A DNA stretch of 54,237 nucleotides, from the IMG/VR virus record IMGVR_UViG_3300030250_000026. One strand, written 5' to 3'. Made by a program: the position numbers and the translations under genes. Positions within the stretch are counted from its first letter, which is position 1; each line of letters begins with the position of its first letter. The notes under the pieces were generated by a model. That model was not told the origin of the DNA and made no database searches. It saw only the letters and a list, made by a program, of their open reading frames with translations. The stretch is from a virus. Positions 27,281-47,895 of the stretch are shown in pieces.

Positions 27281-27458
27281 GTTTAAGTTGAAGAGTTGAG
27301 GAGTTGAAAAGTTGAGAAGTTAAGAGGTCGGAGTTTCTAAGTTGAAGAGTTAAGAGGTCGGTTTAAGTGGTTGAACTCGTAGAGGTTACTCCATAAACTT
27401 TTCAACTTATAAACTTATCAACTTGAAACTCCAACTCATCAACTTCTCAACTTAAAAG
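27281..27458 (+). repeat. AGTTGA-block palindromic element, copy C (longest; contains an internal duplication of AAGTTGAAGAGTTAAGAGGTCGG)
   Basis: Seen directly. Core GGTCGGTTTAAGTGGTTGAACTCGTAGAGGTTACTCCATAAACTT. Confidence 0.85.
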
Positions 27459-29280: not shown

Positions 29281-32200
29281 ATGCCAATAAGTAAAAGCGC
29301 ACTGAAGAATATATATGCCACCTTGCAGAAGGGTGGATATACACAGGACTACGAAACTTTTGAAAAGGGTTTTACTGGTAATGAACACTATGCGAACCGC
29401 AAGAAGGTGTATGACTTGCTGACGGCGAACGGTGCTCAGATAGGCGACAGCTATGAGGATTTTATGCGGAGAATATATGTGGCTCCGGCTAAGCCCGCAG
29501 CGGCGCAGACTGCCCACCCTCAACAGACAGCACAGGCTGCAGCACCGGCACAGCATGCGCCAGCCGCGAAGCCGAAACCGCGTAATGGGCAGTTGACGGC
29601 GGCTCAGCGGCAGGCATATATAGCGAGGGCGCAACAGATGTCGCAACAGGTTGGCGCATCGGTGCAGCGCACAAATAACCGCATGGATTATGAGAGAGCC
29701 AGGGCCGGACTGAGGACACCGCGTGTGCAGCTTGGCAGCAAGGCCAGTGGCGGGGCGAAACTTGGCGAGAACAGCCGTGTGGTTGCTACGAAGCCGAAGT
29801 TTAACCCTGCGACGGGTAAGATGGAGCGGACTTACTTGACAGAGTCGGGTAATGAGTATACGAGCCGTGCTGCGGCTGACATGGAGCAGAATGAAATAGA
29901 CCAGGCGGTACAGCAGCAACTTTATCCTAGCTATAATAACTATAACGACAAGCAAGCGGTGGCTGCGCAAGCACCTGCTACTGCTGTTGCGGCCCAACTG
30001 TGGAAGGAAGCCCAAAATGCGTACGATGCTGATAGCAGAAGGTATGATGAGATGGATTCAAAAAATCCTTGGGCTGCCAATATGGGTGTTGCAAAAGCAC
30101 AAAACCTTGAGGTGTCGCGACTTAAGCACTTTGATTTGCAGAAGATGAGTGACAACGCCTGGGCGCGTGTGGGCAAGCAGATGACGACATCGTGCTATGC
30201 GCGCCTGAGAAAGATGTACCCGAATGCGTTGGAGAGACAGGTGCAGGCATCGGCGGAGAAGGAGGCACGTGCACTTGTGCAGAATGCAGTGTACAAGTAT
30301 GCGGTTAAGATGAATGCGCCCAAAAGTCAGTTGGAGTACTTTATTAAGAAAGCCGTTGATGCGAACATGTTGACAAGCGTGCTCAGAGGCATGGCGCGGA
30401 AACAGGCTGGCACGACAGGTGATATGGCGGCCTACGAAGAAGCCATGGACGAATATGGCAAGGACCACCGTTGGACTGGTGTGTTCGGTACGGGTGTGGG
30501 TATGGCGTTTGACCCGACGAACTGGCTTGGCGGTTATGTAGGTTCGCTTGCCGGTAAGGCTGCACTGAACATAGGCGGCCGCCTTGTGCTGAAGAGTGCT
30601 CCTGGTGTGGGTGCCCGTTTGTTTGGCAGCACGATGGCAGGCAAGCTTGTGACCGGTGCGGCAAGCGGCATGGGCATGATGGGCACCTACGAAGGCGTGA
30701 AGGAGGCCGAGAGACAGTGGGTGTATGGCGGACACGTGAACCCCGAGACTCGCGAGAATGAGGGCTATTCGGCAGGTGCTGTGGCTTTGTCGGCCCTGAA
30801 AGGTGCCGGACTTGGCGCGATGACCGGTATGGTGTCGCCGTTGGTGGGCAATGTAGCAGACAAAGTGGTGCAAACCACGACCAGCGCGACTGGCAAGGTG
30901 GTGACAAGACTTGGCGAGGTAGCGACATCAGCCGTGGCCGAAGGTACGATATTTGCCATGCCGGCAGTTATTTCTGGACAAGAGAGTTTTGTGGACGCGT
31001 GGACCGAAAGTATGGCAATGATTGTAGGCTTAAAGGGTCCGCACATGGTGAAGTCAGCTGGCCAGGTTATAGCCGGAATGCGCCCTGTGGCAAATCCGCG
31101 AACCATGGCGGAGCGCAACAAGAACCGCAGAGGTTTTGTGGAGAACTTGAAAAGGACCATGGACGCGGGTGCGAACAAGCAATGGAATGGCAATCAGCCA
31201 GACGTTAGGTTCACGAAGGAGGAACTTGCCGAGTTGAAGCAGATGGGTTATGGCAATCTTGCATCGCTGCTTACCCCCACCGAGAAGGTATTGCCGAAGA
31301 AGAAGCCCAGTCAGCCGAAACACCCCAAGAACACTGATGGCTTGACGGTATACTTTGATGTGGGAAGTGGCAAGAAAGAGGCAGAGGCCGACCCGAAAAT
31401 GAAGTGGTTGCAGCAGCACCCCGAGTTTGACGGTTATGCCACGATGGAGAAACTCATGCAAGACCCGAATGTGAGCCAGGCGGCAAGGGCGAAGGCTTAT
31501 TATATGTTGACGGGCCGTCTGTTGCCGATGGGTACTATTACCGGTTGGAACGTGGGTAAGGACGACAAGGGCAACATCTGGGTGAAGTCGGTGAATTCGG
31601 AAGGCGAGGTTGTAACGAGCAGACGTTTTACAGATGAGGCATCAGCCAAGAGAGAGGAAGCCAAAATCATACGCCAAGTAGAACTCAATACCGTTGACAT
31701 GGGCGAGCAATATAAGGAGATGCAGGCCAATGCCGCTGTGGTAGAGACTGCTATAAAGGCTGTGGCTCCGAATGCCGATGTGAATGAGGCCATGCGCGTG
31801 TACGGCGAGGTGAAGAAGGGCAACAAAGACTATGACAGTTATAAGGACCTTGCGAAATCGATAGACGAGGCTATTGCGTCGAACCCCGAAGCGGTGGAGA
31901 GGGCCAAGACGTTATTGCCGGAAAACATACGTAAGGATATTGCCGAACAGACTGGTGTGGAGGTGGACAAGGCTTTGGGCAAGCCAGAAGCAGAGCGCAC
32001 TGATGCAGAGAAGCAGGCTGTGCAAACCTATCTTGAAAGACTTTATGACAAATCGGCGTCAGATGGTGCGGCGACACCCCCCGATGCACAACTTCAGGGT
32101 CCGGAGCAATTTGCTGAAGCCTATGCCCAGCACCGTACGCACAAGGGCAGCGGACAGGTGGTGCCAGCCACGATGAAGGCTGGTGACAGAAAGGTGTATG

Positions 32201-35200
32201 TTATTGATGGCGATGTGGTGCAATATGCGGACAAGTCGGGCATAGATGTGGCGAAGTCGGACAAGAGTATTGTTGTGTGTGATGCTGAGACGGGCAAGTA
32301 TGAGTATACGAGTCCGGACCAGCTAATGAATGTTGGTGAGCCAGCGGACCCGAGCACACTGTCGGAGGCGTATATGGCGAACGAGCGTGCGAAGGAGGCT
32401 GCTGCCAATGGCGAGGGAACTGCCGAGGGTAATGCGGCTGCCGAGGGTAATGCGGCTGCCAATGGCGATGTGTCTGCTGATGGTGGCAAGGCGGAAGTTG
32501 TGGAACCTGCCTACACAGATGGCAGCCGTGTTGAGATAAATGGGCATGAGTATGACGTAAAGTCGGCAGGTGAGAAGACTGTGGTGCTTGTTGACGAGCA
32601 CGGGAAGGAACTTGCTTGGACCCGTAGTGCGCTTGATGCGAAGCTGGAGAGTGGTGATGCTGAGGTGCTTGAACCCAAGGCGGAGGCTGCTCCTGATGTA
32701 GCAACGGAGGGTTTGAAGGCTGGTGACGTGTTTGAAGACAGCGATGGTAATGCGCTGACCGTTAAGCGCGTTGATGGCGACAAGGTGGTTGCTGTTGGCG
32801 CAGACGGGAAGGCGCAGACGTATGAAGATGGCACGTTTGAGCAGATGGTGGAAAGCGGTGTGCTGAAGCGTGCGCAGAAAACAGAAGAACCTTCTGAAGC
32901 GAAAGTGGACCTGACTGACAATCAGGGTAACCCCGTTAATGATGATGGCACGCTTAAGGTAGAGGCTGTTCAGTCTGTAGATGAACTGACGGACGAGGAT
33001 TTCTCTGCTCCTACACGTAATGTGCAGTTGCCTGCTTTGCCTCAGAATGTGGACGCGGCATTAAATGCAAATGGTAAGCCAGTCATTATCAAGAAGAATA
33101 TTTTTAAGAAAAACTGGGGAGCGCATGAATTCTATTCTGATGAGAGCAGGGCTATACTTAAAGCTGCATTGTATAATACAGACTTGGTGGGTCAGAGACA
33201 ATCCAACGACAAACCTTTGCATTGGGTTGCTATTAGAATTGACGATGAAAGTCCTACCGTGGTACTTGAAGTAAACGAGAATAAGGATAATATAGAAATT
33301 GTCGACTGGTTTACGGTTGATGAACGAGAATCAAAAAGAATATACAGAATAAAAAAACAAGCCGAGAAGAACGGCGGGGAACTCGTTATGTTATCCCCGA
33401 AGGATAAGGTGGAAAGCCTTTCCACTCCTCAAACCGACTTGTCTGCTGAAAGCAAAGGTACGGAACAATCTTCGGGTGTGCAAGCGGAAGTGCCACAAGC
33501 TGAAGTGCAGGAAAATGCTCCTATGCCGATGCGTGTTGTTGGCAAGGGGAAGAATGCGGTGCAGGAGGAGGACTGGCTTGCGACGACTCCGAAGCGTGGT
33601 CATGACTATGTGTTCAAGGAGAGTGGTCTTGATGCTGAGGAGGCGAATGCTTTTGTGGAGAACAAGGTGGCTGAGGCTGAGAAGAATCTTGAAAAGGTTA
33701 AGGGCAAGGCTCCTAAGATGGGTACTAACATTGCGGCTTACAAGGAGGCTAAGGCAGACTATGAGGCTCGTGTGGCTGAGGCTCAGAAGGCTGTGGACTA
33801 CTGGCATGCGGTGAAGGCTGAGCGTGACAAGGTGTTGCTTGAGGAACGGCGTGCGCGCAAGGAGAAGGACAAGGCGTTGTATGACGATGCCGTGGCGCAG
33901 GAGGAGCAGCGCAAGGCTGAGATGGCGCAGAAGGCTGCCGAGCAGGAGGCTTTGGGCAGTAACGCTGTGGCTCCTGCCATTAAGGAGAAGTGGGAGAATG
34001 CTCCGAAGGTAGATGGTGGTGCAGATGAGATTACTTTGCCTAATGGTGAGGTGGTGACCGGTCATTATGTGCTGACGGAGAGTGGTGCGGCGAGTGCTTC
34101 GCACCAGGCTACGAACGGGTTTGCGGAGACTGAGGGTTACCCTGTGGACGTGAATGGTGAGACTGTGAATGACCGTGACTATAAGCGTGACGCTGAGGCC
34201 CAGCAGGTGACGCGTGGCATGGCTGCTGATTATGACAGCCGTGCGCTGCAAAGCCCTGTGGTGGTGAGTGGTGATGGTGTGGTGCTGTCGGGTAACGGCC
34301 GTACCATGGCTGGTGAAATTGCGGCTTTGAATGGTAGTGATGCGAAATATAATGCGTATCTTCGCGGGCATGCCGGCAAGTTTGGTTTTACGACGGAGCA
34401 GGTGGAAGGGTTTAAGCACCCTCGTGTGGTGTTTGTGCCTGATGGTGAGATGCCTTACACGTCGGAGACCTTTGCGAAGTTCAACCAGCGTGAGCAGAAG
34501 AGCCAGAGCCGTACTGAGATGGCTGTGAAGCTTGGAAAGGTGGTGGACGATGCTTTGTTTGGCCGTGTGATGGACGTGATAGGGCGTCATGAGTCGTTGG
34601 CAGAGTTTTATGCTGATGATGCTGCTACTGCTGCTGTGGTGAAGGAGTTGGCTGATGCTGGCGTGATACCTCAGACAGAGATGGCGCAGTTGTTTGACGG
34701 CGGCCGTTTGAGCGAGAGCGGTCAGGCTATGGTTGAGGGTGTGCTTGTGGGCAAGGTGTTCCAGGGCAGCCCTGATGCTGTGCGTCAGATTACTGAGGTG
34801 AAGAGTATGCGCAAGGCTGTGATGGCTGCTTTGCCTGAGGTGGTGGCTTGTCACCGCCTGGGTGGTGGCTATGACTTGTCGAAGGAGTTGGCTGCTGCTG
34901 TAGACTTGGTGTATAAGGCCCGCAAGGCTGGTTTTAAGCTTGGTCAGCATGTGAGCCAGCATGCGCGCCAGGGTAACTTGTTCCAGCTGGACGATGGTGC
35001 GACGGTGGCAGACTACAACAATGCTGCTGTGATGATGCTGGCAGACGTGATGAACGATGGGCGTGTGACGCAGCTGAAGAAGGTGCTGTCGTTTTATAAC
35101 ACGCAGGCGGCAGACTCTGCCCAGGGCATTGGTGACATGTTTGCCGGTGGTGTGAAGAGTAAGGGACAGATTATTAACGAGGTAAATGAGTTATTAAACA

Positions 35201-38200
35201 ATGGACAAGAATACGATAGAAGAACCCCGTCGGTTGCAGACGGACAAGGCGTCGGAGGCGAAGGCGGCGAACAAGGCGATGTTGCTGGCCCGAGCCATCA
35301 AGGCGGCGCGGGCAGCGAGCGTGGATTAAGTGAGGCTTTTGACGGCCTTGCAGCGCAGCTGAAGACTGCTGAGGGTGAGGAACGTAAGCGTGTGCTTGGT
35401 GAGATGCGTGATGGCATTGCGCGTTTTGCTGAGGAGAATGGTTACCCTGTGCCGGAGTTCTTGCTGACGCGTGAGGACTTTTTGGCGGCTGTGCCTGAGA
35501 AGGACAGGGCGAAGTATGTGGAGTGGCTTGATGATGGTGCGCACATGCCTGCCTATTATACTAAGGGCAAGGTGTATGTTTACGTGGAGGGTTGTGAGAC
35601 CTTTGACAAAGATGTGAATGAGACACTTGCCCATGAGTATACTCATGCTGATAATGCGGAGTTTCCCGAGAATGTGAATGCGTTGACGTATGCGTTGGAA
35701 GATACGCATGAAGTGACGCGTGACGAGCTTCGTGAAATATTGCGTGAAATGTCGCAAGGTGAGCATTACGACAGGGAGGCCGAGAGATTGGAGGCAGAGG
35801 GCAAGGACGTGAACAAGATGCTCGCCGATGAGGTTATAGCTCATGCAGTGGCACGCATGGTGGTGGAAGGTGAGCAAGTGCTTGACGGCATCACAAAGAA
35901 TCCTACGCTGCAATTTATAATTAAACGTGCATATAAAGCAAGAGAAAATGAACGACAATACAATATTCGTGCCCGTGAGAATGCCGAGCGGCATGACAAT
36001 GCGAGTGAGGGTGACAACAGAGGTGGCTCAAATAATGGAGCGAATGTTGAAGGAGAATCCGCAAATGGAGGAGTCGGACGCCCTGTCAATGGCTCTGAAG
36101 GAGGTGAAGTCTCGTCAGAGCGGGGACGCTCAACAGTAAGTGATGGCAAGGAAGTAGCGGCTCCTTCGTTGGAGGGTGCTAAAGTTGGTGTGACCGATGG
36201 TGAGAAATCGTCGGCCACTGGAGATGCTTTGCCTTCGGGTAAGGGTGACACCCCGTTGAGTGAGAAGATAGCCACCGCCTCAGCCGAAGTGAACACCGAA
36301 CCGACAGAGGCGCAGAAAGAAGCCGGCAACTATAAGAAGGGACATGTGCAAGTTGGCACGTTCGACATCACCATTGAGCAGCCGCAGGGCAGTGTGCGTA
36401 AAGGCACTGACGCTGACGGCAAGCAGTGGGAAAGCAAGATGAACAACACTTATGGCTACATTCGTGGTGCAGTTGGTGTTGATGGTGACCATATAGACGT
36501 GTTCCTCTCTAATGACATTGATGGTTGGAACGGACGCAGGGTGTTTGTAGTGGACCAGTACAACCCAGATGGCAGTTTTGACGAGCATAAGGTGATGCTT
36601 GGTTTCAACGATGCTGACGAAGCAAAGAACGACTATCTTGCTAACTATGAGAATGGTTGGGAGAATGGTCGTAGAATTGACGTGACTGCTGTGAACCTCG
36701 AAGACTTTGAGAAGTGGATTGCATCAAGCAAGCGCAAGACCAAGCCCTTTGGTGAGTACTCGTCGGTGAAGAATGGTGTTGTGCCTTCGGGTGAGGGTGA
36801 CACCCCGTTGCTTGACGTTGATGGCAAGCCTATAGTGGTGAAGGCAGACGATGGCAAGGTGGAGTTGAACCTACGTACTTGGCAAGATGAGAAGCAGCAG
36901 GTGCGTGATGCGCTGTTAGACGGCGGGCTGGAGCCGGAGGCTGTAGATGCGATGATGGCCCAGGCTGAAACTATTGCCAGTGGCATGAGTGGACTTGCTG
37001 ACAAATACCCGCTGTTTGGTGCATGGCAAAAGGTGGCAGCTACTAACCGCCCTATATTGAGAAACAATGCGGGAGGTTATTTGAGCTTTGACTATTCGTT
37101 CAACTGTGTGAAGAAAGATGCCTTGAATGCTGTGATGGAGGCACTTGTGGCTGAGGGCAAGGGTGGCCATTTGGGCGTGACCCAGGTTGAGGCTTTGAAG
37201 AAGGTGCTTCAGAAACATGGCTTTTTGACTCCTTGTGTGATGTGTTATGTTGAGGCCAAGCGCAAGGTGTACAAGCAGAGCAAGGAGATGGCTGCCAAGT
37301 GGAATGCTGTGGCCGAGGCTGCAGGCTTGACTGGCGAAGATATGGGTGCCGAACGCGAGCTTGGCGCAGAGCAGAGGAATGCTCTGGCGCAACTTGCCAA
37401 TGGTGAAAATCTTGGCTCGGTGAAGGGTTCTGCAGAAAATGGCAAATATGGTATAAAGAAGGATACTATTGTGAAGATAGCGAAGCTCATGCTTGACAGT
37501 GCGAAGCTGAGAGGGCGCATGAACTATGAATGGATGATGTCGCCGAGTTCGTACACTGAAATGTACAACAAGTTTGGTGATACGGGATTGATGGAGTTCA
37601 TGTCGCAGGGTCAGAGTCGTGGCAAGGCTTTGCTTGAAACCTCACCGTTTAGTTTTAAGTCTGTTCCAAGAGACCTCATGATGGGCATGTATAACCCTGT
37701 GGTTCTTGCGAATATGGGTGGTGTGCGTCAGTTCAGCTATGAGGACGCACGTGCGGTCATGTTCTTTGACTACTACACGCAGTTCCTTGTTATGCAGGGT
37801 GCGCGTGCTCCGGAGCACCTTTACACGAAGCGTCCGTTTATGCCGGAGATGTTTGGCCGTACTGGTGCCATGATGAACCAGAGCCTTATAGTGGATATAT
37901 GGCGTGGTGAAGAATGGCACAAGAAGGCCCTTGGCTTGTCGGACAAGGAGTATGATGCGTGGTTGACAGCGCATGCGGGATTTGTGCCAAGAGGTGCATT
38001 GCCCAAGGGCCATACTCTGTATGAGGCTGGCAGTACGGAGCTTGTTCCGAATTGGGGTGTTGAGAGTTTCCCCGTAGACATTGCGATGAAGAATGTGCAT
38101 AACAAGGATTATAAAGGCACTGTGGGCAATGTGGTGGTGGCCCCCAACCGCAAGTTTATATTATGGGCCTTGGATAACCCAGACATTCACATGGTGCTGG

Positions 38201-41200: not shown

Positions 41201-44200
41201 AGGCGGTGAGTGCGCTGCAGCGTGTGAAGCGTGCCATTGACAGGTTCTGGAAGGCTGTGGCAGACTTCCTTCACATTCACTACACGAGTGCCGAGGAGGT
41301 GGCTGACAGAGTGATGAAGGATTTGCTTGACGGTGTGGACCCGAGAAAGTTCATGGGGGATAAGGCGCAGAAGGAGAAGATGCGCTATCAATTCATGGGC
41401 GAGAAGGGTGCTGGCGAGAATGTGCGTGACGCGGAGGACTACACGGCATTTGCCAGCCGGTATGGTGTCAGCGAGGATATGGTGAAGGATTATGCGTTGG
41501 GCATAAAGACTGGCAACTTGCAAAAGGCTAATTTTGCCTTGACTGAAATACGCCGTACGATGCGTGTGGCAAACCGTGGCATGAAGCTTTCGGAGTTTGG
41601 CAAGTTGTTCCGCCCTGTGCAAAAGGAGCTGGCTGAACGTTATGGTGACATAGAGGTGTTGCGGCAGGAGTATATTGATGCTGAGATGCGTGAACGTGGC
41701 GTTATGGAGGCTGCCCGAAAGCGTGCCGAGGAGGAGGCGGCAAAACGTAAGGCTCGTGCTGATGAGTTGCGTTTGTTGCCGGAAGAGGAACTTGACAGGC
41801 GTTATTTTGAGGCGGTTGAGCGTGGTGACGATGCTGCTGCCCGCGAGATGCTTGACGAGGCTGCCCGCCGCAAGGGTTATGGCGATACTGAAAGTGAGTA
41901 CCAGGGTGTGGGTGCATGGGTGGCACCGTCGAACCCTGGTTATGAGACGGACGAAGCGAGACGTGACGCCGTTGGCGAAGACTCGCCTGACCTCAATGTG
42001 GAGGACATGGCGGCAGGCTACAGCAACCAACCAGAAGACATTTTTGTGCATCCTGATAAATACTCGCAAGGCTTGCCAACAAGCAAGGAGAGCGGCAAGG
42101 CGATACAGACGGCCATTGACGACATACGGAACGGTAAAAAGGAGGTAAAAATAAAGGTGTATCGCGCTGTGCCTACCTCAGTAAAGGAGAGCAAATTGCG
42201 CAATGGTGACTGGGTGACCCCCTCGAAGGAGTATGCAGAGATGCATGGCAACAACCGTTTGGAAGGTAAGTACCGCATCATTGAAGATGAGGTACCAGCT
42301 GGTGAACTTTGGTGGGACGGCAACGATGTCAACGAATGGGGCTTTGACGATGGCAAGGGCTACAAGTATAAGAATGTGGAGAACAGCCGCAAGTTGAATG
42401 ACCTTGTGACGCGTGATGATAATGGCGAGATTATTGCTCCTTCGAAGCGTTTTGACGAGAATGTGGAAGATGTGAGGTACCGCACAAGCGAAGAACTTGG
42501 TCAAGAATATGGCTCGCGTTGGATTGACGAACAGACTAATGAGGACGGACGTCATACGACGCAGGTGAAGAACACCATCAATTCGTACAAGAAATTTGGT
42601 GACTGGGTGAAGCGTGATTCAGGCGGACGCAATGTAGATGTGCTTGATGCGAGCAGCGGCCTTGGTCTTGGCACAGAGTGGTTGCGTGAGAATGGTATTA
42701 ACGTTGAAGACGTGGAGCCTTATCCGTCAGAGAACCGCACAGCCCCTACTTATATAAGTTATGGCGAAGTAAAGAAAAAGTATGACTACATTATTAGCAA
42801 TGCAGTCTTGAACGTGATACCCGATGACTGGCGGGCCAATGTGCTGCACAATATGGCGGAAAAATTGAAAGTTGGCGGCAAATTGGTTATCAATGTGCGT
42901 AGTGCTGAAAGTATTCGCAAACAAGGTAAGGAGGGTGAGACGCGTATAACTCTTGACGACCCGTCGGAGATACTTGTGTTACGCCCGAATGGTAGCATCA
43001 AGGCTTATCAGAAAGGATTTACAAAGGCTGAACTGAAAGAATGGTGTGAAAAGGAATTGGGCAAGGGTTATTCGGTAGAAATAGCGAATGACAAGAACGC
43101 TGGCGGCAGCTATGATACTGCTGTGGTGGTGACTAAAAATAACGAAAGCGGCACTATTGGTGTCGCTTCCGAGGCGGGCCGTCCACGCAGGAGTGCGCAG
43201 GCCTTGCCCAGTTCAAATGCAAAGTTAGACAATAATCAGAAATTTGCCAATAACTTATTGGTACTTTCTGAAAATTTGTCTGAAAGAGATATGGGAGCGC
43301 ATGAATTCTTGTTCAATGTGGCAAAGGCTTTTGGGCTTAATGGACAAAATTTGAATAAGTCTTTCTATCAAGATTTAAGCAATTCAGTTGGCATTCGCAT
43401 ATCAGACCATTCGGCAAATACTGATAACATTACAAACAGAAATGTGAACGATGATGTTTATGGTTTAGTTGTAAAACTCTCTAAGAATCGCTTTAAGTCA
43501 AGAAGCGATGCCAACTACCTTGAATACGTTTACTATCCCGACAAGTTGACTGGCGAGCGTCAGCGTGAGATTGTTGAAGGGTTGAATAAATTCTTGCAGA
43601 CTGGCGACTATATGCAACTGCCAGCACCAGACAGAGTGAACCGTTCGGGGAAGTTTGATGTGTTGATTGACGGAAGGGAAACTTCGCCAACGGCCAAGCA
43701 CCAGGCTGCCAATGACCTTGCGCGGCAGATGCACGTGGAGGGTGAAGTAGAGGTGGTGACAAGCACTGATGGCTTGACCGGCAGACAGGCGAAGGCTAAG
43801 GGCTGGTATGATGTGAGGACCGGACGTGTGACGATTGTGCTGCCTAATAACAAGAATGCGGCTGATGTGCGTGAGACGGTGTTCCACGAGGTGGTGGCGC
43901 ACAAGGGGCTACGTAACCTTGTGGGTGAAGAAAACTTTAACACCTTCCTTGATAACGTGTACAACAATGCTGAGGAGGGCATCAAGCAGACCATTGACGA
44001 GATGGCTGAGAAGAAGTATAATGGTGACAAGCGCAAGGCTACTGAGGAGTATATGGCGCACTTGGCCGAGGACGGTGAGTATGTGAAGCCGGAGAACCAG
44101 GGCTTCTTTGCGAAGGTGAGGGATTTCTTGACGGACTTGCTGAGGAAGGTTGGCATAAAGCTTGGCTTTAAGTTGACGGACAATGATTTGCGCTACATAT

Positions 44201-47200
44201 TGTGGCGTAGCTGGAAGGGGCTTGCTGAGCGTGACGGCGGTTCGGTGTTTGAGAAGGCTGAAGATGTGAAGATGCAGCATGAGCTTGGTCAGACTGACGA
44301 GGCTCGCTCGGCGAGTGGTGAGAATGGTATCATGTTCCGTGAGGGGAGTGATGAGCTGAAGGACGTTGTGGAGAAGATGAAGGCTGACGTTGAGCGGTTG
44401 CATGAGGGTGAGCTTGATGATTTGCGCTCGGGTGCGCGGGCTATTGGCGGGCGGCTGAGTGAGCTGAACAAGGCGATGCGCCTGCAGCGTGCTTATGACA
44501 TGAGCACTGTGGCGAGTGTGACGGAGCTGGCGAAGACGATGCTCAAGAATGGCTTGCTGAGTGAGATGAGTGACTATGATGTGCGCCGTTTGCTGTCGGT
44601 GGTGAATAATGTGCATGGCAAGGGTGACATCAGGCCTTATGTGCAGAAGGTTGTGGACATGATGGTTGGCAACCGGCTGCGTAATGTGTCGAAGGCGTTT
44701 GACAAGTTGCTTGCCATGCGTGGGAAGAAGGTTGATGCGCGTGGCGTGGAGGTGCAAGGTGAGCTTGACTTGGCCGGTCAGCGCATGGCAGATGTGGTGT
44801 GGAAGGGCATTGGCATGTCGGACGATGATGTGGCGGACATGTGTGCTGATGCCCAGGACCGCATGATGAGTGCGAATGGTGCGGAGGCAGCTGCTGCTGC
44901 GACGGACTATGCCGGGTGGCAGATTGTGATGCGTTACAATGAGACGATACGTGACAGCAAGAGTGAGGAGGTGCGGTTGCGCGAGGATTTGAAGCGTGCG
45001 AAGGAGGATTATGATGCCGGGCGTATGACGCGTGAGGCTTACATGGAGTTCAGGGAGAGCACGAATGACGCGATACGCGAGAACCGCATTGAGCGTGCTG
45101 AGGCTTATGAAGAGTTGTATGAGCAGCTTGGTGGTGCTTATGGGGAGAGCATTAAGCGTGCGGCTGACTTTAAGGCTGCCGAGAAGGCGCGTGTGCTGGA
45201 GATACAGCATAATGCCAACTCGGACATGGAGGGCCGCCCGGCGCGCTCATACAGAAAGGACACTGCTGTGGACAAGGTGCTGAACAGCTCGCCAGTGCAG
45301 TTGTTGTTTGCCCCGCTTGGTACGTTTGACCAGATGCTGCGTATGTTTGGCAGCAAGAATGTGAAGGGCGAGGGTTACTTGTGGAACCGGTACATGCGTG
45401 GTTGGCTGACTGCGACAGAGAATGAGTATACGGGTTATCGCGATGCTACTGCCGAGCTTGACGCGAAGGCTGCTGAGGTGCTTGGCAAGGGTAAGACTTG
45501 GGCTGACTTGTTTGCGCTTGAACGTAAGTTGCCGAAGGCTACGGTGCGTGTGTGGGACAATGGCGAGATGAGGGAACTTGAATTGCCCCAGGGTAACTTG
45601 CTTTACATCTACATGGTGGACAAGATGGCCGACGGCCGCATGAAGTTGCGCAAGATGGGTGTGACGGAAGATGATGTGGCTGCGATTGAGGATTTTCTGG
45701 ACCCGCGGCTGAAGGAGATTGGTGACTGGCTGCAGGAGGTGTATCTTGTGGAGAAGCGAGGCAAGTATAATGAGGTGCATGAGCGTATGTTTGGTGCTGC
45801 GATGGCTTCGATAGACAATTACTTCCCGCTGAAGATATTGAAGGACGCACGTGCTGAGAATGTGGACGTTGGTGTGGAGAAGCGTGAGTCGGAGATGGCA
45901 TCTACGATTACGGGCAGTGTTGTGAAGCGTACGCGTAATGCGCTGGCACTTGACTTGCTGAACTCTGATGCCTTTTCGGTGGTGCTTGACCACTTGCAGC
46001 AGATGGAGCATTGGAGTGCCTTTGCGGAGTGGAACAGGGACTTGAACACGCTGTTGTCGTACAAGCACTTCCGTAACCAGGTGAAGAATATGCGTAGTGC
46101 ATACGGTAGCGGTGAGCGGCTGTGGGAGGCTTTTGACAAGGTGGCGCGTATTGCTGCTGGCACTTATACTCCGCCCAAGGCTTTTGCTGACAAGCTGGCT
46201 GTAAATATAGCGAAGGGTGTTACTGCTGCGAAGATTAGCTTGCGTGTGTTTACTGCGCTCAAGCAGTTTACATCGTTCCCGGCGTACTTGTCGGACAGTA
46301 ATCCGGTGTATCTGCTGAAGGGTGTGGCTAACCCGTATGGTTCGTGGAAATGGTGCATGGAGAATTTGCCCCTGTTTGAGAAACGCTGGAAGAGCCGCAT
46401 GGCTGGTGACCCGAGGTTGCTGAAGAATGAGATGGACTGGGGCTTGTGGCGTGACAATGTGGTGCAGATGGCTGCGAAGTGGGGTATGACTCCGAATGGT
46501 TTTGTTGATGCGTTGACGGTGTGCATAGGCGCGAGGGCGATGTATGAGACGAGGCGCAGGAAGTATATTCGTTATGGTTATGGCCTGGAGGAGGCTGAGC
46601 GACGTGCGAAACAAGATGCTTCGATATTGTATAACCAGACTCAGCAGTCGAGCGAGGGTGCTTTTTTGTCGGCCTTGCAGGTAGACAGGTCGTGGTATTC
46701 GGTGTTGTTTACGGTGTTCAGGAACTCTTCGATGTCGTATACGCGTCAGTTGTATGCTGCATTGCGCAACACTGGCCGCAGGATAGCGGGTGGTGCGAAG
46801 TTTAAGGGCATTAGCGAGGCGTTTATGGCTAAGCAGATGGAGCGTGACGGGATAGACCCGGATAAGGCTTCGAAGAATGCTAAGGCGGAGTATCGCAAGA
46901 GTTGGATAAATGACTTTGTGCGTGCTGGTGTGTTTGGCTATGTGTTGCAGCTGGCTTGGAATTGTGGTCCGTATGCGCTATATATGTTGTTTGGCGACGA
47001 TGAGAAGAAGGGCAAGGAGATGTGGCATGATATATGGACGCACACTGCATTTGGCTCGGTGGAGGGCTTGACTGGTGGTGATGTGTGGAGCGCGGGCTTG
47101 CAGTCGCTGTGGAACCATTATATGAATGGTGAGGACTTTAATGCTAACAGCGTGAATAAGGATATGCCATTGACGAGTGACTTGCTTAAGGTGGTGAAGA

Positions 47201-47895
47201 AGGTTGGCAGTGACAATTATGGTGCGGTGAATGATGTGCTGAACTTGCTTGTGCAGGCTGGTTTTGGTGTGAACCCTCAGACTCTGACAGATGCGGCGGT
47301 GGCGATATATGACTATTGTGGCTCTGACGTTGAGACGACGAAGGAGTGTGCGTTGCTTGTGATGCGTGTGATGAACTGCCCTCAGAGCCAGATGGATAAT
47401 ATCTACTTTGATGAGATTGATGCTACTGGCGAGGAGGCGAAGGCGATGAGTGTGGAGGAGATTGCTGAACGCTATGCGAGGTATAAGGCTTTGCGGAGTG
47501 CCCCGTTGCGTGCGTTGAGCAGTGATGCCTTGAAGGCTGCTGAAAAGAAGCCTCGCGAGAGGGTGCTGACGGAGGCGAAGGAGCAGCTTGACGGCCGATT
47601 GATGACTGAGGAGGCTCAAAGGTATCTTGATGAGTATGAGGCGACGAAGAAGAAGGTGACGGAGACTCGTGCTTTGGCTGATACTGACCCGAAGGCTTTC
47701 ATGCAGCAGATGCCGGCCTTGGCGCGCTCGGGTGAGTTTAGGAGGTACAGGCGTGTCGGGCTGTACAAGAGTGAGGTTGACAAGCTGACGAAGAAGCTGC
47801 TCAGGACGAGTGACCCGGCAGAGCGTAGGGCGTTGTTTGGTAAGATGCTTGATGCTCGTGACAAGATGCTGAAGCAGGTGAGGGAGATGGAGTGA
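29281..47895 (+). CDS. Giant polyvalent protein (6,204 aa): multi-enzyme, probably virion-delivered effector
   Basis: One uninterrupted 18,615-nt ORF. Contains four HExxH modules, ParB-like, pyrophosphatase-like, ART-like and SAM-methyltransferase motifs, and a Gly-rich hydrophobic N-region (see the domain features below). Confidence 0.85.
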   Translation: MPISKSALKNIYATLQKGGYTQDYETFEKGFTGNEHYANRKKVYDLLTANGAQIGDSYEDFMRRIYVAPAKPAAAQTAHPQQTAQAAAPAQHAPAAKPKPRNGQLTAAQRQAYIARAQQMSQQVGASVQRTNNRMDYERARAGLRTPRVQLGSKASGGAKLGENSRVVATKPKFNPATGKMERTYLTESGNEYTSRAAADMEQNEIDQAVQQQLYPSYNNYNDKQAVAAQAPATAVAAQLWKEAQNAYDADSRRYDEMDSKNPWAANMGVAKAQNLEVSRLKHFDLQKMSDNAWARVGKQMTTSCYARLRKMYPNALERQVQASAEKEARALVQNAVYKYAVKMNAPKSQLEYFIKKAVDANMLTSVLRGMARKQAGTTGDMAAYEEAMDEYGKDHRWTGVFGTGVGMAFDPTNWLGGYVGSLAGKAALNIGGRLVLKSAPGVGARLFGSTMAGKLVTGAASGMGMMGTYEGVKEAERQWVYGGHVNPETRENEGYSAGAVALSALKGAGLGAMTGMVSPLVGNVADKVVQTTTSATGKVVTRLGEVATSAVAEGTIFAMPAVISGQESFVDAWTESMAMIVGLKGPHMVKSAGQVIAGMRPVANPRTMAERNKNRRGFVENLKRTMDAGANKQWNGNQPDVRFTKEELAELKQMGYGNLASLLTPTEKVLPKKKPSQPKHPKNTDGLTVYFDVGSGKKEAEADPKMKWLQQHPEFDGYATMEKLMQDPNVSQAARAKAYYMLTGRLLPMGTITGWNVGKDDKGNIWVKSVNSEGEVVTSRRFTDEASAKREEAKIIRQVELNTVDMGEQYKEMQANAAVVETAIKAVAPNADVNEAMRVYGEVKKGNKDYDSYKDLAKSIDEAIASNPEAVERAKTLLPENIRKDIAEQTGVEVDKALGKPEAERTDAEKQAVQTYLERLYDKSASDGAATPPDAQLQGPEQFAEAYAQHRTHKGSGQVVPATMKAGDRKVYVIDGDVVQYADKSGIDVAKSDKSIVVCDAETGKYEYTSPDQLMNVGEPADPSTLSEAYMANERAKEAAANGEGTAEGNAAAEGNAAANGDVSADGGKAEVVEPAYTDGSRVEINGHEYDVKSAGEKTVVLVDEHGKELAWTRSALDAKLESGDAEVLEPKAEAAPDVATEGLKAGDVFEDSDGNALTVKRVDGDKVVAVGADGKAQTYEDGTFEQMVESGVLKRAQKTEEPSEAKVDLTDNQGNPVNDDGTLKVEAVQSVDELTDEDFSAPTRNVQLPALPQNVDAALNANGKPVIIKKNIFKKNWGAHEFYSDESRAILKAALYNTDLVGQRQSNDKPLHWVAIRIDDESPTVVLEVNENKDNIEIVDWFTVDERESKRIYRIKKQAEKNGGELVMLSPKDKVESLSTPQTDLSAESKGTEQSSGVQAEVPQAEVQENAPMPMRVVGKGKNAVQEEDWLATTPKRGHDYVFKESGLDAEEANAFVENKVAEAEKNLEKVKGKAPKMGTNIAAYKEAKADYEARVAEAQKAVDYWHAVKAERDKVLLEERRARKEKDKALYDDAVAQEEQRKAEMAQKAAEQEALGSNAVAPAIKEKWENAPKVDGGADEITLPNGEVVTGHYVLTESGAASASHQATNGFAETEGYPVDVNGETVNDRDYKRDAEAQQVTRGMAADYDSRALQSPVVVSGDGVVLSGNGRTMAGEIAALNGSDAKYNAYLRGHAGKFGFTTEQVEGFKHPRVVFVPDGEMPYTSETFAKFNQREQKSQSRTEMAVKLGKVVDDALFGRVMDVIGRHESLAEFYADDAATAAVVKELADAGVIPQTEMAQLFDGGRLSESGQAMVEGVLVGKVFQGSPDAVRQITEVKSMRKAVMAALPEVVACHRLGGGYDLSKELAAAVDLVYKARKAGFKLGQHVSQHARQGNLFQLDDGATVADYNNAAVMMLADVMNDGRVTQLKKVLSFYNTQAADSAQGIGDMFAGGVKSKGQIINEVNELLNNGQEYDRRTPSVADGQGVGGEGGEQGDVAGPSHQGGAGSERGLSEAFDGLAAQLKTAEGEERKRVLGEMRDGIARFAEENGYPVPEFLLTREDFLAAVPEKDRAKYVEWLDDGAHMPAYYTKGKVYVYVEGCETFDKDVNETLAHEYTHADNAEFPENVNALTYALEDTHEVTRDELREILREMSQGEHYDREAERLEAEGKDVNKMLADEVIAHAVARMVVEGEQVLDGITKNPTLQFIIKRAYKARENERQYNIRARENAERHDNASEGDNRGGSNNGANVEGESANGGVGRPVNGSEGGEVSSERGRSTVSDGKEVAAPSLEGAKVGVTDGEKSSATGDALPSGKGDTPLSEKIATASAEVNTEPTEAQKEAGNYKKGHVQVGTFDITIEQPQGSVRKGTDADGKQWESKMNNTYGYIRGAVGVDGDHIDVFLSNDIDGWNGRRVFVVDQYNPDGSFDEHKVMLGFNDADEAKNDYLANYENGWENGRRIDVTAVNLEDFEKWIASSKRKTKPFGEYSSVKNGVVPSGEGDTPLLDVDGKPIVVKADDGKVELNLRTWQDEKQQVRDALLDGGLEPEAVDAMMAQAETIASGMSGLADKYPLFGAWQKVAATNRPILRNNAGGYLSFDYSFNCVKKDALNAVMEALVAEGKGGHLGVTQVEALKKVLQKHGFLTPCVMCYVEAKRKVYKQSKEMAAKWNAVAEAAGLTGEDMGAERELGAEQRNALAQLANGENLGSVKGSAENGKYGIKKDTIVKIAKLMLDSAKLRGRMNYEWMMSPSSYTEMYNKFGDTGLMEFMSQGQSRGKALLETSPFSFKSVPRDLMMGMYNPVVLANMGGVRQFSYEDARAVMFFDYYTQFLVMQGARAPEHLYTKRPFMPEMFGRTGAMMNQSLIVDIWRGEEWHKKALGLSDKEYDAWLTAHAGFVPRGALPKGHTLYEAGSTELVPNWGVESFPVDIAMKNVHNKDYKGTVGNVVVAPNRKFILWALDNPDIHMVLAYHANGANPLVKSLTGYDRAEAMDDGYHTHDENGKVVDELSVPEIGLEIHDGDLQWNVLLRRNGYDARKAAQVYLDYCKEHGLTPMFCYDGVVDMSGERATSHPEYYKLLTDFRVYDEDGNSIRQRAVKALLPENWQVILDKYLQQESALGSKVGHIGLDEGLMKEINAVTRFASIESGERDTLTKLLTSIYGKDNVQVLATREFDAALDEVTERGHAQMLRDNGGTVYGFAVGDRIVLNEDLFNANTPMHEHTHVYMKVLKATNPRLYNRGMELWRDTPLWKQAKRGLEELGEEPTDEQIFSECMSQFTGVENEKVISEVTGITDKNWLQKAMSWLSEMWKGVKSAFSRWTQNDLDGLTAEQFGRMPLRAVYDAKERKAYAKMVKQVFGNGGAGEHGVEMMHEPSREETILRDVVIEHMKGSGLDVIGTEEGQRVLDMANGRYVRLEAKQKRALETATIAEQSTNNATVVSSADGAKVQKVLETLADNYEKRPNKTRGFITDLSRSLGLVQHEASQYGTFETRNGKLVTIRVSNHNARVSFFDENGEEDGISIVISSHKNKGVLNDGKAHLVEYFYPKQSLERSGGKPLADIVKCVSTVLESGKFEDTTGLAQRQEVNAQQIREHRVYHGSGAEFDHFDHSHMSEGEGSQVYGWGTYVTEVKGIAEGYAIRARNGISNINEEWYLKRGELESNIYRAKEQLPFLKGEYKAEMEAQISEWEKQLKEYDGPNNLYTVEIPDDNGSNYLAWNEPLSVEDSGRIISGLFDLPPSDIEEMAKRDYTFKHILYDLIKINDKAQYVPVLAKGNVLSRSTMYDGGREINDFGGVYRRLQGWFGSAKAVSKFLYSLGYAGIKYPADYRSGGREDDAKNYVIFNENDAEITDHVRFFKTKNGEAYGFTVGGKIYYDPRIANAETPVHEYAHLWASALKANNAEEWKNVVDLMKGTNVWEEVKKTYPELETDDEIADEVLATYSGRRGAERLREEMRKAAADGDGVMGKAEAVSALQRVKRAIDRFWKAVADFLHIHYTSAEEVADRVMKDLLDGVDPRKFMGDKAQKEKMRYQFMGEKGAGENVRDAEDYTAFASRYGVSEDMVKDYALGIKTGNLQKANFALTEIRRTMRVANRGMKLSEFGKLFRPVQKELAERYGDIEVLRQEYIDAEMRERGVMEAARKRAEEEAAKRKARADELRLLPEEELDRRYFEAVERGDDAAAREMLDEAARRKGYGDTESEYQGVGAWVAPSNPGYETDEARRDAVGEDSPDLNVEDMAAGYSNQPEDIFVHPDKYSQGLPTSKESGKAIQTAIDDIRNGKKEVKIKVYRAVPTSVKESKLRNGDWVTPSKEYAEMHGNNRLEGKYRIIEDEVPAGELWWDGNDVNEWGFDDGKGYKYKNVENSRKLNDLVTRDDNGEIIAPSKRFDENVEDVRYRTSEELGQEYGSRWIDEQTNEDGRHTTQVKNTINSYKKFGDWVKRDSGGRNVDVLDASSGLGLGTEWLRENGINVEDVEPYPSENRTAPTYISYGEVKKKYDYIISNAVLNVIPDDWRANVLHNMAEKLKVGGKLVINVRSAESIRKQGKEGETRITLDDPSEILVLRPNGSIKAYQKGFTKAELKEWCEKELGKGYSVEIANDKNAGGSYDTAVVVTKNNESGTIGVASEAGRPRRSAQALPSSNAKLDNNQKFANNLLVLSENLSERDMGAHEFLFNVAKAFGLNGQNLNKSFYQDLSNSVGIRISDHSANTDNITNRNVNDDVYGLVVKLSKNRFKSRSDANYLEYVYYPDKLTGERQREIVEGLNKFLQTGDYMQLPAPDRVNRSGKFDVLIDGRETSPTAKHQAANDLARQMHVEGEVEVVTSTDGLTGRQAKAKGWYDVRTGRVTIVLPNNKNAADVRETVFHEVVAHKGLRNLVGEENFNTFLDNVYNNAEEGIKQTIDEMAEKKYNGDKRKATEEYMAHLAEDGEYVKPENQGFFAKVRDFLTDLLRKVGIKLGFKLTDNDLRYILWRSWKGLAERDGGSVFEKAEDVKMQHELGQTDEARSASGENGIMFREGSDELKDVVEKMKADVERLHEGELDDLRSGARAIGGRLSELNKAMRLQRAYDMSTVASVTELAKTMLKNGLLSEMSDYDVRRLLSVVNNVHGKGDIRPYVQKVVDMMVGNRLRNVSKAFDKLLAMRGKKVDARGVEVQGELDLAGQRMADVVWKGIGMSDDDVADMCADAQDRMMSANGAEAAAAATDYAGWQIVMRYNETIRDSKSEEVRLREDLKRAKEDYDAGRMTREAYMEFRESTNDAIRENRIERAEAYEELYEQLGGAYGESIKRAADFKAAEKARVLEIQHNANSDMEGRPARSYRKDTAVDKVLNSSPVQLLFAPLGTFDQMLRMFGSKNVKGEGYLWNRYMRGWLTATENEYTGYRDATAELDAKAAEVLGKGKTWADLFALERKLPKATVRVWDNGEMRELELPQGNLLYIYMVDKMADGRMKLRKMGVTEDDVAAIEDFLDPRLKEIGDWLQEVYLVEKRGKYNEVHERMFGAAMASIDNYFPLKILKDARAENVDVGVEKRESEMASTITGSVVKRTRNALALDLLNSDAFSVVLDHLQQMEHWSAFAEWNRDLNTLLSYKHFRNQVKNMRSAYGSGERLWEAFDKVARIAAGTYTPPKAFADKLAVNIAKGVTAAKISLRVFTALKQFTSFPAYLSDSNPVYLLKGVANPYGSWKWCMENLPLFEKRWKSRMAGDPRLLKNEMDWGLWRDNVVQMAAKWGMTPNGFVDALTVCIGARAMYETRRRKYIRYGYGLEEAERRAKQDASILYNQTQQSSEGAFLSALQVDRSWYSVLFTVFRNSSMSYTRQLYAALRNTGRRIAGGAKFKGISEAFMAKQMERDGIDPDKASKNAKAEYRKSWINDFVRAGVFGYVLQLAWNCGPYALYMLFGDDEKKGKEMWHDIWTHTAFGSVEGLTGGDVWSAGLQSLWNHYMNGEDFNANSVNKDMPLTSDLLKVVKKVGSDNYGAVNDVLNLLVQAGFGVNPQTLTDAAVAIYDYCGSDVETTKECALLVMRVMNCPQSQMDNIYFDEIDATGEEAKAMSVEEIAERYARYKALRSAPLRALSSDALKAAEKKPRERVLTEAKEQLDGRLMTEEAQRYLDEYEATKKKVTETRALADTDPKAFMQQMPALARSGEFRRYRRVGLYKSEVDKLTKKLLRTSDPAERRALFGKMLDARDKMLKQVREME
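30472..31085 (+). other. Domain: Gly/Ala-rich hydrophobic region (membrane-insertion or tape-measure-like)
   Basis: WTGVFGTGVGMAFDPTNWLGGYVGSLAGKAALNIGG...GAGLGAMTGMVSPLVGN... Confidence 0.5.
32170..32870 (+). other. Domain: three ~50-aa beta-rich repeats (SH3/Tudor-like by pattern)
   Basis: MKAGDRKVYVIDGDVVQY.., YTDGSRVEINGHEYDV.. and LKAGDVFEDSDGNALTV.. share a common periodic pattern. Confidence 0.4.
34060..34445 (+). other. Domain: ParB/Srx-superfamily-like (ddrB-ParB type of polyvalent proteins)
   Basis: SPVVVSGDGVVLSGNGRTMAGEIAAL has the GNGR-type motif recalled from ParB-like domains of polyvalent proteins. Confidence 0.5.
35551..35865 (+). other. Domain: zincin-like metallopeptidase module 1
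   Basis: KGKVYVYVEG...NETLAHEYTHADN with a downstream ADEVIAHAV (HExxH + Glu). Confidence 0.6.
36301..36745 (+). other. Domain: inorganic-pyrophosphatase-like
   Basis: GNYKKGH...ITIEQPQGSVRKG...YGYIRGAVGVDGDHIDVFL parallels the PPase YGYI...DGDPVDV metal-binding core. Confidence 0.6.
38875..39132 (+). other. Domain: zincin-like metallopeptidase module 2
   Basis: YGFAVGDRIVLNEDLFNANTPMHEHTHVYMKVL. Confidence 0.6.
39688..40025 (+). other. Domain: IR[IV]S[ND]H module, copy 1
   Basis: GFITDLSRSLGL...VTIRVSNHNARV...LVEYFYPK...VLESGKF. Paralogous to 43294-43612. Confidence 0.45.
40072..40850 (+). other. Domain: ADP-ribosyltransferase-like (H-Y-x, ART-PolyVal type)
   Basis: HRVYHGSGAEFDHF...QVYGWGTYVTE...AKNYVIFNEND fits the His / Tyr / third-strand layout of H-Y-E ARTs. 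Confidence 0.45.
40878..41125 (+). other. Domain: zincin-like metallopeptidase module 3
   Basis: YGFTVGGKIYYDPRIANAETPVHEYAHLWASAL...ADEVLATYSG. Confidence 0.6.
42553..43140 (+). other. Domain: class-I SAM-dependent methyltransferase
   Basis: Motif I VDVLDASSGLGLG, post-I VEDVEP, YDYIISNAVLNVIP, and GGKLVINV. Confidence 0.65.
43294..43612 (+). other. Domain: IR[IV]S[ND]H module, copy 2
   Basis: GAHEFLFNVAKAFGL...VGIRISDHSANT...YLEYVYYPD...FLQTGDY. Confidence 0.45.
43801..44076 (+). other. Domain: zincin-like metallopeptidase module 4
   Basis: GWYDVRTGRVTIVLPNNKNAADVRETVFHEVVAHKGLRNL...TEEYMAHLAEDG. Confidence 0.6.

Follow-up and report, generated by a model that had tools for sequence, protein, structure and literature searches.

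The stretch of DNA analysed here (the window) is the whole of IMG/VR virus record IMGVR_UViG_3300030250_000026, 54,237 nt in length; its first 99 nt recur at its end, so that the assembly is circular and the true genome is 54,138 bp. The source is a temperate tailed phage of gut Bacteroidales, and 34.4% of its genome is given over to one open reading frame (ORF), hereafter the giant, which occupies 29281-47895 on the (+) strand, begins with an ATG, has 6,204 codons with one stop, the terminal one, and has a predicted product of 688.6 kDa. An initial annotation, made from the letters of the DNA alone, had described a single uninterrupted ORF of this length covering 34% of the genome, and this was confirmed. 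The giant, located among the structural/late genes, runs in the same direction as a closely spaced gene assigned to the T7 gp14 family, and is the last of three consecutive genes, here called the trio, which with their flanking elements are as follows.

27260..27456, (+), composite intergenic hairpin element upstream of the trio (repeat families D1-D3; one of five copies)
27567..28250, (+), trio gene 1, 227-aa T7 gp14-like internal virion (ejection) protein (PF24072)
28247..29266, (+), trio gene 2, 339-aa protein, overlapping gene 1 by 4 nt (homologues of 326-466 aa)
29281..47895, (+), trio gene 3, giant polyvalent protein, 6,204 codons
47879..48021, (+), copy of the hairpin element closing the trio block and overlapping the stop codon of the giant

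Continuity of the giant gene and conservation of the trio

The chance of 6,204 stop-free codons, calculated from base composition, is about 1e-160, and the GC content at the three codon positions (GC1/GC2/GC3) is even along the ORF and the same as in the genes for the large terminase (TerL), portal and major capsid protein (MCP). Two IMG/VR contigs found by means of an internal segment carry unbroken ORFs of 6,129 and 5,551 codons. Nine IMG/VR contigs of close relatives were stitched from gp14-anchored and HExxxH-anchored loci, the overlaps of which were identical, and in eight of the nine the gene is unbroken (5,729, 5,960, 6,129, 6,292, 5,926, 6,216, 6,226 and 5,801 codons). As the stitched relatives span 5,729-6,292 codons, the giant is typical in size for its clade and not the longest, and the earlier remark that its size relative to the genome is extreme does not hold within that clade. 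Counterparts are also present in two cultured Bacteroides phages, BKO1-TP3 (gp55, 5,553 codons; PQ571269), where GenBank labels it ‘DarB-like antirestriction’, and BF1-TP2 (gp68, 3,633 codons; PQ571263); the paper describing these isolates does not discuss their giant genes (PMC12694917). BKO1-TP3 belongs to the same lineage as the source phage, with 61% identity in TerL and 64% in the portal. Genes of this kind are the rule throughout a phage lineage that has already been sampled, and the giant is no isolated case.

There is the possibility that the ORF is an artefact, either a chimeric assembly over repeated modules or several genes fused by sequencing errors. Its recurring modules (HExxH modules 2 and 3, and M12 and M18, listed below) might mislead an assembler, the ninth stitched relative has an in-frame stop, and the listed database homologues are all of 2,453 aa or less. 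However, the internal paralogues are about 25% identical at the protein level, which is too divergent for mis-assembly, and when the eight independently assembled unbroken relatives, the long genes of the cultured phages, the uniform codon-position GC and the minute probability of so long a stop-free frame are added, an artefact is most unlikely. Stop-codon recoding was also considered as a cause of the length and was rejected, the ORF being open in the standard code.

The in-frame stop of the ninth relative is a TAG at position 13115-13117 of IMG/VR contig 3300045988_132150 (stitched from loci L013 and L101), which is otherwise collinear; possible explanations are a sequencing error, a nonsense mutation, read-through and a real two-gene variant. 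Two other loci, L001 (ENA ERZ28646258 scaffold_93) and L002 (GCA_963599345.1 CAVBXL010000011.1), hold modules 96-99% identical to those of the giant in mosaic genes that are broken into several ORFs and adjoin bacterial chromosomal genes (a glycosyltransferase/SpoIID fusion and DNA polymerase III alpha), with no phage genes near; these copies could be domesticated genes, remnants or contig-end effects. With respect to the catalogues, the limit of 2,453 aa applies to all 120 listed protein-database homologues, though genes of 5,500-6,300 aa exist in the same samples, and several contigs stop inside the giant gene (L005 and L007); it appears that protein catalogues systematically break up or under-represent giant genes.

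The product of the first trio gene opens with a Gly-rich hydrophobic stretch, continues as a helical region, and matches PF24072 (T7_gp14) from end to end at E = 0.0022. Three independent orthologues have T7_gp14 as their top match at 4e-5 to 1e-4, and within the family, which comprises 1,101 cluster representatives in an exhaustive search, T7_gp14 is matched by 34 of 77 sampled members (best 4.7e-10) and no other family recurs; no match was found in PDB sequence and profile searches. On these profile matches, trio gene 1 is assigned to the T7 gp14 internal-virion protein family. The second gene is homologous to BKO1-TP3 gp56 and to genes at L005 and L007, and a five-member family profile found no Pfam or PDB match. 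The giant had been said to sit after two coiled-coil proteins; the first of these is the T7 gp14-family protein.

The trio recurs in BKO1-TP3 (159/371/5,553 aa, with the portal gene directly after), in BF1-TP2 (182/441/3,633 aa) and in contigs from metagenome-assembled genomes. There are 392 gp14-like relatives in IMG/VR, and at the best 80 of these 392 loci the third ORF had met no stop after 2,800 codons or more when the fetched DNA ended in 64 cases and reached the contig end in 7, the remaining loci comprising 2 in which it was closed and short and 7 in which it was not called.

Modules of the giant protein

The handle, domains and other modules of the giant, numbered by residue of the predicted protein, are set out below.

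29281..29475, (+), N-terminal ‘handle’, aa 1-65, followed by a Pro/Ala/Gln linker (aa 66-119)
29638..32130, (+), N-terminal core, aa 120-950; 18 homologues, without Pfam domains
32143..32880, (+), three short beta-type repeats, aa ~955-1200, with Ala/Glu/Gly/Asn linkers between them; pairwise phmmer E = 0.002-0.04
32944..33348, (+), LPD13, aa 1222-1356; PF18825, E = 1e-39, 136 bits, above cut-off
34066..34422, (+), ddrB-like ParB, aa 1596-1714; PF18763, 36.4 bits against a cut-off of 27.6
35368..36060, (+), HExxH module 1, aa 2030-2260, HEYTH at 2118; found by motif, weakly similar to POCJ13 gp71
36196..36813, (+), InPase cassette, domain at aa 2343-2480; PF18823, 182.6 bits
36799..38850, (+), dark module M10, aa 2507-3190, with Cys2609, Cys2652 and Cys2655
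38788..39420, (+), HExxH module 2, aa 3170-3380, HEHTH at 3224; paralogue of module 3
39520..40113, (+), M12, aa 3414-3611, ‘RVSNHNA’ motif; paralogue of M18 by BLAST
40051..40860, (+), ART-PolyVal-like module, aa 3591-3860; PF18760, 31.0 bits against a cut-off of 31.2, E = 4.9e-7
40798..41460, (+), HExxH module 3, aa 3840-4060, HEYAH at 3891; paralogue of module 2
41848..42495, (+), conserved module M16, aa 4190-4405; phrog_2579 ‘ParB C-terminal domain’, E = 3.6e-23
42538..43140, (+), class-I S-adenosylmethionine (SAM) methyltransferase, aa ~4420-4620, motif I ‘VLDASSGLG’; PF13489 Methyltransf_23
43240-43650, (+), M18, aa 4654-4790; paralogue of M12
43663..44340, (+), HExxxH module, aa 4795-5020, HEVVAH at 4869-4874 plus E4923; phrog_14770, E = 3e-47
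44317..47892, (+), C-terminal all-alpha module, aa 5013-6204; AlphaFold2 (AF2) model with a predicted local distance difference test (pLDDT) of 75 and a predicted template modelling score (pTM) of 0.67

The handle is the only segment common to all giants of the lineage. A profile of the N-terminus matches BKO1-TP3 gp55 (1e-30), the giant of locus L004 (1e-18) and BF1-TP2 gp68 (5e-6), and in other giants detects the first ~65-230 residues only; an alignment of seven giants resolves a domain of about 65 residues with invariant Y12, G19, F27, R40, Y44, L47 and F61, after which comes the Pro/Ala/Gln linker. The handle opens 65 of 73 third genes in IMG/VR, and is likely to be an incorporation or docking signal.

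Phage-type polyvalent proteins were defined by Iyer, Burroughs, Anand, de Souza and Aravind (Iyer et al., 2017, J Bacteriol; PMC5512222), and by its domain content the giant is one of them. Several disparate activities are joined in one chain (LPD13, ddrB-ParB, InPase and Methyltransf_23, with ART-PolyVal at the cut-off), LPD or PolyVal-specific families are present (PF18825, PF18763 and PF18823), and TerL, a portal and an SU10-like MCP are encoded on the same circular genome (PHROG/Pfam), placing the gene among virion genes of a phage with portal-terminase packaging. The polyvalent multi-enzyme architecture first proposed from motifs is thus supported. As in the proteins of Iyer et al. (2017), the giant is mosaic between orthologues, but it has some 20 modules where 2-15 domains were reported, has no detectable MuF, MuF-C or portal fusion and is instead coupled to a T7 gp14-family gene, and adds the 65-residue handle, which is specific to its lineage. 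More than 70% of its length has no counterpart among the described LPD and other Pfam families, the above-threshold Pfam domains covering about 489 residues (~8%), in agreement with the initial annotation, which could name no motif in well over half of it. The best PHROG is ‘DarB-like antirestriction’, with a match limited to the InPase region, and an NCBIfam scan added nothing. Nine low-complexity linkers separate the modules.

Three of the folds named beforehand were confirmed by profile searches. The ParB-like GNGR segment corresponds to the ddrB-ParB domain, in which G1671, N1672 and R1674 are conserved; the pyrophosphatase-like core is the InPase domain, the acidic residues of which are conserved; and the methyltransferase is matched by Methyltransf_23 over aa ~4450-4546 (31.8 bits against a cut-off of 27). 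LPD13 came in addition. The ART-like segment remains borderline, since the alignment to ART-PolyVal falls just under the cut-off and spans profile positions 8-60, i.e., the first third; DUF3990 also matches (E = 6e-5), homologues of the region at about 70% identity carry precomputed PF18760, and the module is apparently split by a helical insert. For the three small beta repeats only sub-threshold Pfam matches were obtained and the mutual similarity is weak, so that they are plausible but not proven. M12 has conserved R3505 and H3509, and M16 shows strong residue conservation. M10 has 6 homologues among 5.8 billion sequences and no Pfam, PHROG, NCBIfam or PDB match.

The four metallopeptidases of the initial annotation were all given as HExxH. 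Three are of this form, whereas the fourth is HExxxH. Modules 2 and 3 are related at phmmer E = 1.5e-18, with the H, E and H invariant in 31 of 31 aligned homologues, and in the HExxxH family H4869, E4870, H4874 and E4923 are invariant. The HExxxH module is the most widespread of the giant, occurring in 121 proteins of the local set, and matches BKO1-TP3 gp55 at 6e-83 and POCJ13 gp71 at 4e-26. Metallopeptidases of both forms occur in polyvalent proteins (Iyer et al., 2017; PMC5512222), and the modules of the giant are putative zincin-like metallopeptidases. Fine Pfam tiling at E <= 1 found no peptidase, LPD3, LPD23 or MuF_C in the giant; the LPD3, LPD23, MuF_C and peptidase domains of its homologues map to segments that it does not have, that of MuF_C in the relative P0001 being aa 32-134 of that protein, a stretch not in common with the giant.

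The Gly-rich hydrophobic N-region noted earlier is indeed present at aa ~400-600 (nt 30478-31080), within the N-terminal core, where it is conserved and has moderate Kyte-Doolittle peaks of 1.35-1.41. The AF2 model of the core has a pLDDT of 57.6, with aa 411-590 below 50, and is too poor to judge likeness to gp16; no PDB-sequence or significant BFVD match was found. Matches of this low-confidence model to tape-measure proteins (Foldseek/BFVD) were rejected as noise (E > 0.05, TM < 0.1). The C-terminal module is always terminal in the proteins that have it. Neither sequence searches nor Foldseek (best E = 0.058) found a PDB match for it. Its model has 85 BFVD matches at E < 1e-3 (probability 1.0, TM ~0.5), all to the ends of giant phage proteins with annotated polyvalent domains. 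The giants of BKO1-TP3, BF1-TP2, L004 and POCJ13 do not have it; a role as universal virion anchor was therefore rejected, and the module is common but optional.

The payload is variable. In the visible ~2,900 aa of the 73 third genes from IMG/VR, InPase was counted in 59, ddrB-ParB in 46, the N-terminal core (aa 230-620) in 21 and M10 in 1, and modules are permuted in-frame between the giants of the source phage, L003 and L004. The giants of BKO1-TP3 and BF1-TP2, which have the same trio, share with the source phage the handle, ParB, InPase and HExxxH modules; most of their payload differs, and the C-terminal module, M10, ART and methyltransferase were not detected in them by BLAST or profile. 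It would seem that the payload evolves by in-frame exchange of cassettes at the linkers. A 66-nt direct repeat (family D8), with copies at 36198-36263 and 36750-36815 that are 77% identical and both encode ‘..SS..G..PSGxGDTPL..’, flanks InPase exactly; it resembles the edge of a cassette or the scar of a recombination event, and is possibly a cleavage site. Its position around InPase points to cassette exchange at linkers.

Possible packaging, ejection and processing of the giant

Of the weapons of a phage, polyvalent proteins are predicted to reach the host first, and to our knowledge almost none has been studied experimentally. We consider it likely that the giant, as the third gene of the late block, encodes a phage polyvalent protein that is packaged and ejected with the DNA. 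It would be expressed late, and a few copies would join the procapsid along with the gp14-like protein by way of the handle. At infection it would exit by the portal and short tail, either together with the DNA or slightly before it, in the manner of podovirus internal-core proteins. Once in the envelope or cytoplasm of the cell, the chain would be cut at the low-complexity linkers by its four zincin-like HExxH/HExxxH modules. The enzymes so freed, namely a ParB-type nuclease/NTPase, an inorganic-pyrophosphatase-like hydrolase, an ADP-ribosyltransferase, a SAM methyltransferase and several further modules, would act before phage gene expression and blunt host defence and signalling. By a rough estimate one copy of the giant occupies ~830 nm3, equal to ~400 bp of packaged DNA, and a few copies are therefore physically plausible.

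A short tail is itself suggested by several features. The SU10-like MCP, the link of TerL to those of Stx podoviruses, the gp14-family gene and the want of tail-tube or tape-measure matches together suggest a podovirus-like virion; no tail tube, tail chaperone, sheath, tape-measure or baseplate family was matched anywhere in PHROG and Pfam scans, which took in ~35 other ORFs. The initial annotation was right that no tail-tube or tape-measure gene is recognisable, but in a podovirus-like phage this is expected and not an anomaly. The giant as tape-measure protein was rejected, as it has no tape-measure match in Pfam or PHROG and the genome has no tail-tube or chaperone genes.

The arrangement of the trio resembles that of T7, in which gp14, gp15 and gp16 are stacked on the portal in the capsid and, once ejected, form a trans-envelope channel (PMC12002296). 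In both there are three consecutive late genes of rising size, the first in the T7_gp14 family, but the giant is almost five times longer than gp16 and without its lytic transglycosylase. Ejection proteins of more than 1,700 aa are known from cyanopodophage A4, of which gp28 has a metallopeptidase domain (PMC12002296). A polyvalent protein of 2,811 aa, gp47 of phi24B, has been found in virions by mass spectrometry proteomics and proposed as an ejection protein (bioRxiv 10.64898/2026.04.10.717836). Like the giant, gp47 and its orthologue POCJ13 gp71 (~2,800 aa) are very large polyvalent proteins of temperate short-tailed phages (Stx-type podoviruses, Sepvirinae), and POCJ13 gp71 has the HExxxH module in common with it, TerL identity to that phage group being ~25%; they are, however, less than half its size and carry LPD5/LPD1/LPD38/MuF-C instead. 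Upstream of POCJ13 gp71 are small Gly-rich proteins and one of 421 aa, and no homology was detected between the upstream trio genes and Stx-phage gp67-gp70, nor the handle or C-terminal module in POCJ13. Large enzymes that are carried in the head and enter the cell along with the DNA are represented by the P1 Dar system (DarB, DdrB) and the N4 vRNAP; N4 vRNAP and DdrB carry MPTase domains, and P1 DdrB provides a precedent for processing (Iyer et al., 2017; PMC5512222). The giant shares the DdrB-type ParB and has no RNA polymerase domain, and the phage types differ, P1 being a myovirus and N4-like phages podoviruses. The InPase of the giant aligns to the portal C-terminal domain in a solved virion structure (PDB 9b41_L, E = 3e-25), and InPase-portal fusions were noted by Iyer et al. 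(2017; PMC5512222). The suggestion in the initial annotation that the giant doubles as an ejection or internal-core protein is strengthened by the gp14-family gene upstream, the conserved trio and the phi24B virion precedent, but is not proven.

That the giant is packaged cargo only, akin to P1 DarB/DdrB, protecting the DNA from restriction with no role as ejection conduit, is a reading we take seriously while not favouring it, and it departs from the preferred one on the question of the channel alone. It would account for the best PHROG of the giant and the GenBank label of BKO1-TP3 gp55, both ‘DarB-like antirestriction’, and for the presence of a ddrB-type ParB and a methyltransferase, and it could draw on the same DdrB precedent. 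Against this, the N6-adenine DNA methyltransferase and DExH helicase that define DarB were not found in the giant by Pfam or NCBIfam, its methyltransferase being a generic Methyltransf_23, and a passive cargo would hardly be expected to stay so closely linked to a gp14-family gene across relatives. A location in the structural/late block, with a gp14-family gene adjoining and, in BKO1-TP3, the portal alongside, also speaks against the giant being a cytoplasmic multi-enzyme that is produced in the course of infection or lysogeny, is never packaged and serves, for instance, to modify DNA, to exclude superinfecting phages or to fend off rival elements, as do the virion precedents for InPase and polyvalent modules; this is an improbable explanation, even though the shortened mosaic genes at L001 and L002 adjoin chromosomal genes in a manner comparable to the third, ‘domesticated’ context of Iyer et al. 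(2017; PMC5512222).

Another alternative, to which we give only tentative credence, is that the giant is the equivalent of gp16, the N-terminal core and/or the C-terminal helical module building the inner portion of the trans-envelope channel, with the enzymes as passengers of an essential structural protein. Its place as third in a gp14-like/middle/large order is that of gp16 in T7 gp14-15-16, the genome has no other large internal-protein candidate, the conserved Gly-rich hydrophobic region is left unfolded by AF2 as expected for a membrane-refolding segment, and the authors of the phi24B study propose the same role for gp47. The hydrophobicity peaks of that region are, however, below typical transmembrane values, the giant shows no sequence or structural similarity to gp16 or to any solved ejection protein, and as the N-terminal core is present in 21 of 73 giants and the C-terminal module missing from BKO1-TP3, BF1-TP2 and L004, neither can be a universal channel former. 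That neither candidate structural module is universal among giants argues for a ‘handle plus cargo’ arrangement.

The preferred reading, in which the giant is packaged, ejected and cleaved, should be considered with caution, as a number of observations weigh against it. Packaging, ejection and cleavage are inferred, for the giant as for its close relatives. The gp14-like protein of the source phage scores below the Pfam cut-off (18.4 against 27 bits), so that its assignment rests on transitive homology, and the middle gene has no similarity to T7 gp15 in Pfam or the PDB. The giant resembles neither gp16 nor another solved ejection protein in PDB sequence searches or, for the C-terminal module, with Foldseek; Pfam and NCBIfam found no lytic transglycosylase or other peptidoglycan hydrolase in it; and no tile gave a Pfam match to MuF (Phage_Mu_F) or MuF_C, the usual head-association module of phage polyvalent proteins. 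No curated peptidase model in Pfam, PF18818 included, matches any HExxH or HExxxH module. The podovirus-like virion is deduced from gene content, and PMC12694917 gives no morphology for the cultured relatives. Lastly, the TAG of the ninth stitched relative splits its gene into 3,350 + 2,512 codons in the same frame, and L001 and L002 carry split, shortened versions beside host genes; a single chain is therefore not obligatory.

Counterparts of the giant were already present in GenBank (as ‘DarB-like antirestriction’ or ‘hypothetical’) and in IMG/VR, and the idea of ejection from a podovirus comes from phi24B; the present analysis adds the connection with the T7 gp14 family, the recognition of a conserved trio and of the N-terminal handle, and a measure of how large the lineage is. 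A more speculative proposal, which we advance with some diffidence, is that this lineage has merged its DNA-ejection apparatus with its anti-defence arsenal, which in other phages are distinct, the protein at the gp16 position having become a handle with a swappable cargo of 3,000-6,000 residues that is threaded as one chain and cleaves itself, while packaging and exit would be ensured by the handle and the gp14-like partner. If so, no larger protein would be known to cross a phage portal, and the arrangement would amount to a natural, programmable means of injecting proteins. The trio and handle lead to testable hypotheses on the loading and expulsion of a ~690-kDa protein, and the gp14-like gene together with the handle provides a search key for such genes. 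The variable payload can likewise serve as a catalogue of candidate anti-defence enzymes, including M10 and the C-terminal helical module without known fold. The lineage is common in human gut viromes and now has cultured members, one relative, BS-TP4, having been reported in 31% of 930 Chinese viromes (PMC12694917).

Other features of the genome

The PHROG and Pfam scans located the following packaging, capsid and integration genes.

662-2797, large terminase (TerL)
4429-5943, SU10-type major capsid protein (MCP)
6445-8445, portal
18037-19230, (-), integrase

They also identified genes for lysogeny (the integrase and a CI-like repressor), recombination (RecT/exonuclease/NinB), replication (a replication initiator with iterons and a DnaC-like loader), and lysis and modification (an endolysin and a DNA methyltransferase). 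TerL is 47-61% identical to those of three cultured Bacteroides temperate phages and ~25% identical to those of Stx-converting short-tailed phages (Sepvirinae), and no GenBank phage was matched when the first 25 kb were searched by megablast. In GenBank the corresponding TerL genes of BKO1-TP3 (PQ571269, 37872-39986) and BF1-TP2 (PQ571263, 40117-42144) are labelled ‘tail spike protein’; their identity to the TerL of the source phage, which matches terminase PHROGs, is 47-61%.

Just upstream of TerL, a gene of ~1,033 aa lies across the assembly junction (51695-54138 continuing to 1-658). It is homologous to BKO1-TP3 gp34, has a GC of 0.35 and GC3 of 0.36 against ~0.6 elsewhere in the genome, and probably encodes a receptor-binding or tail-spike protein acquired by recent exchange. 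Three adjoining paralogous genes at 49490-51365, of 165, 207 and 221 aa (phrog_35482/phrog_19255), correspond to a similar tandem set in BKO1-TP3, gp35-37. Within the replication-initiator gene, three tandem 42-nt repeats with a spacing of 33 nt (26160-26267) are iteron-like and probably mark the origin of replication.

The composite hairpin element is present in five copies (22402-22536, 25123-25312, 27260-27456, 47879-48021 and 50004-50119), each made up of arrays of 8-mers (GAGTTGAA/GAGTTGAG...), a spacer and then the complementary 8-mers (TCAACTT...), so as to form long hairpins. No Rfam match was found for them. The copies lie between gene modules, two of them bracketing the trio, and that which follows the giant has a predicted RNA fold of -56 kcal/mol (z = -4.2); the elements may be terminators or regulatory/processing sites.

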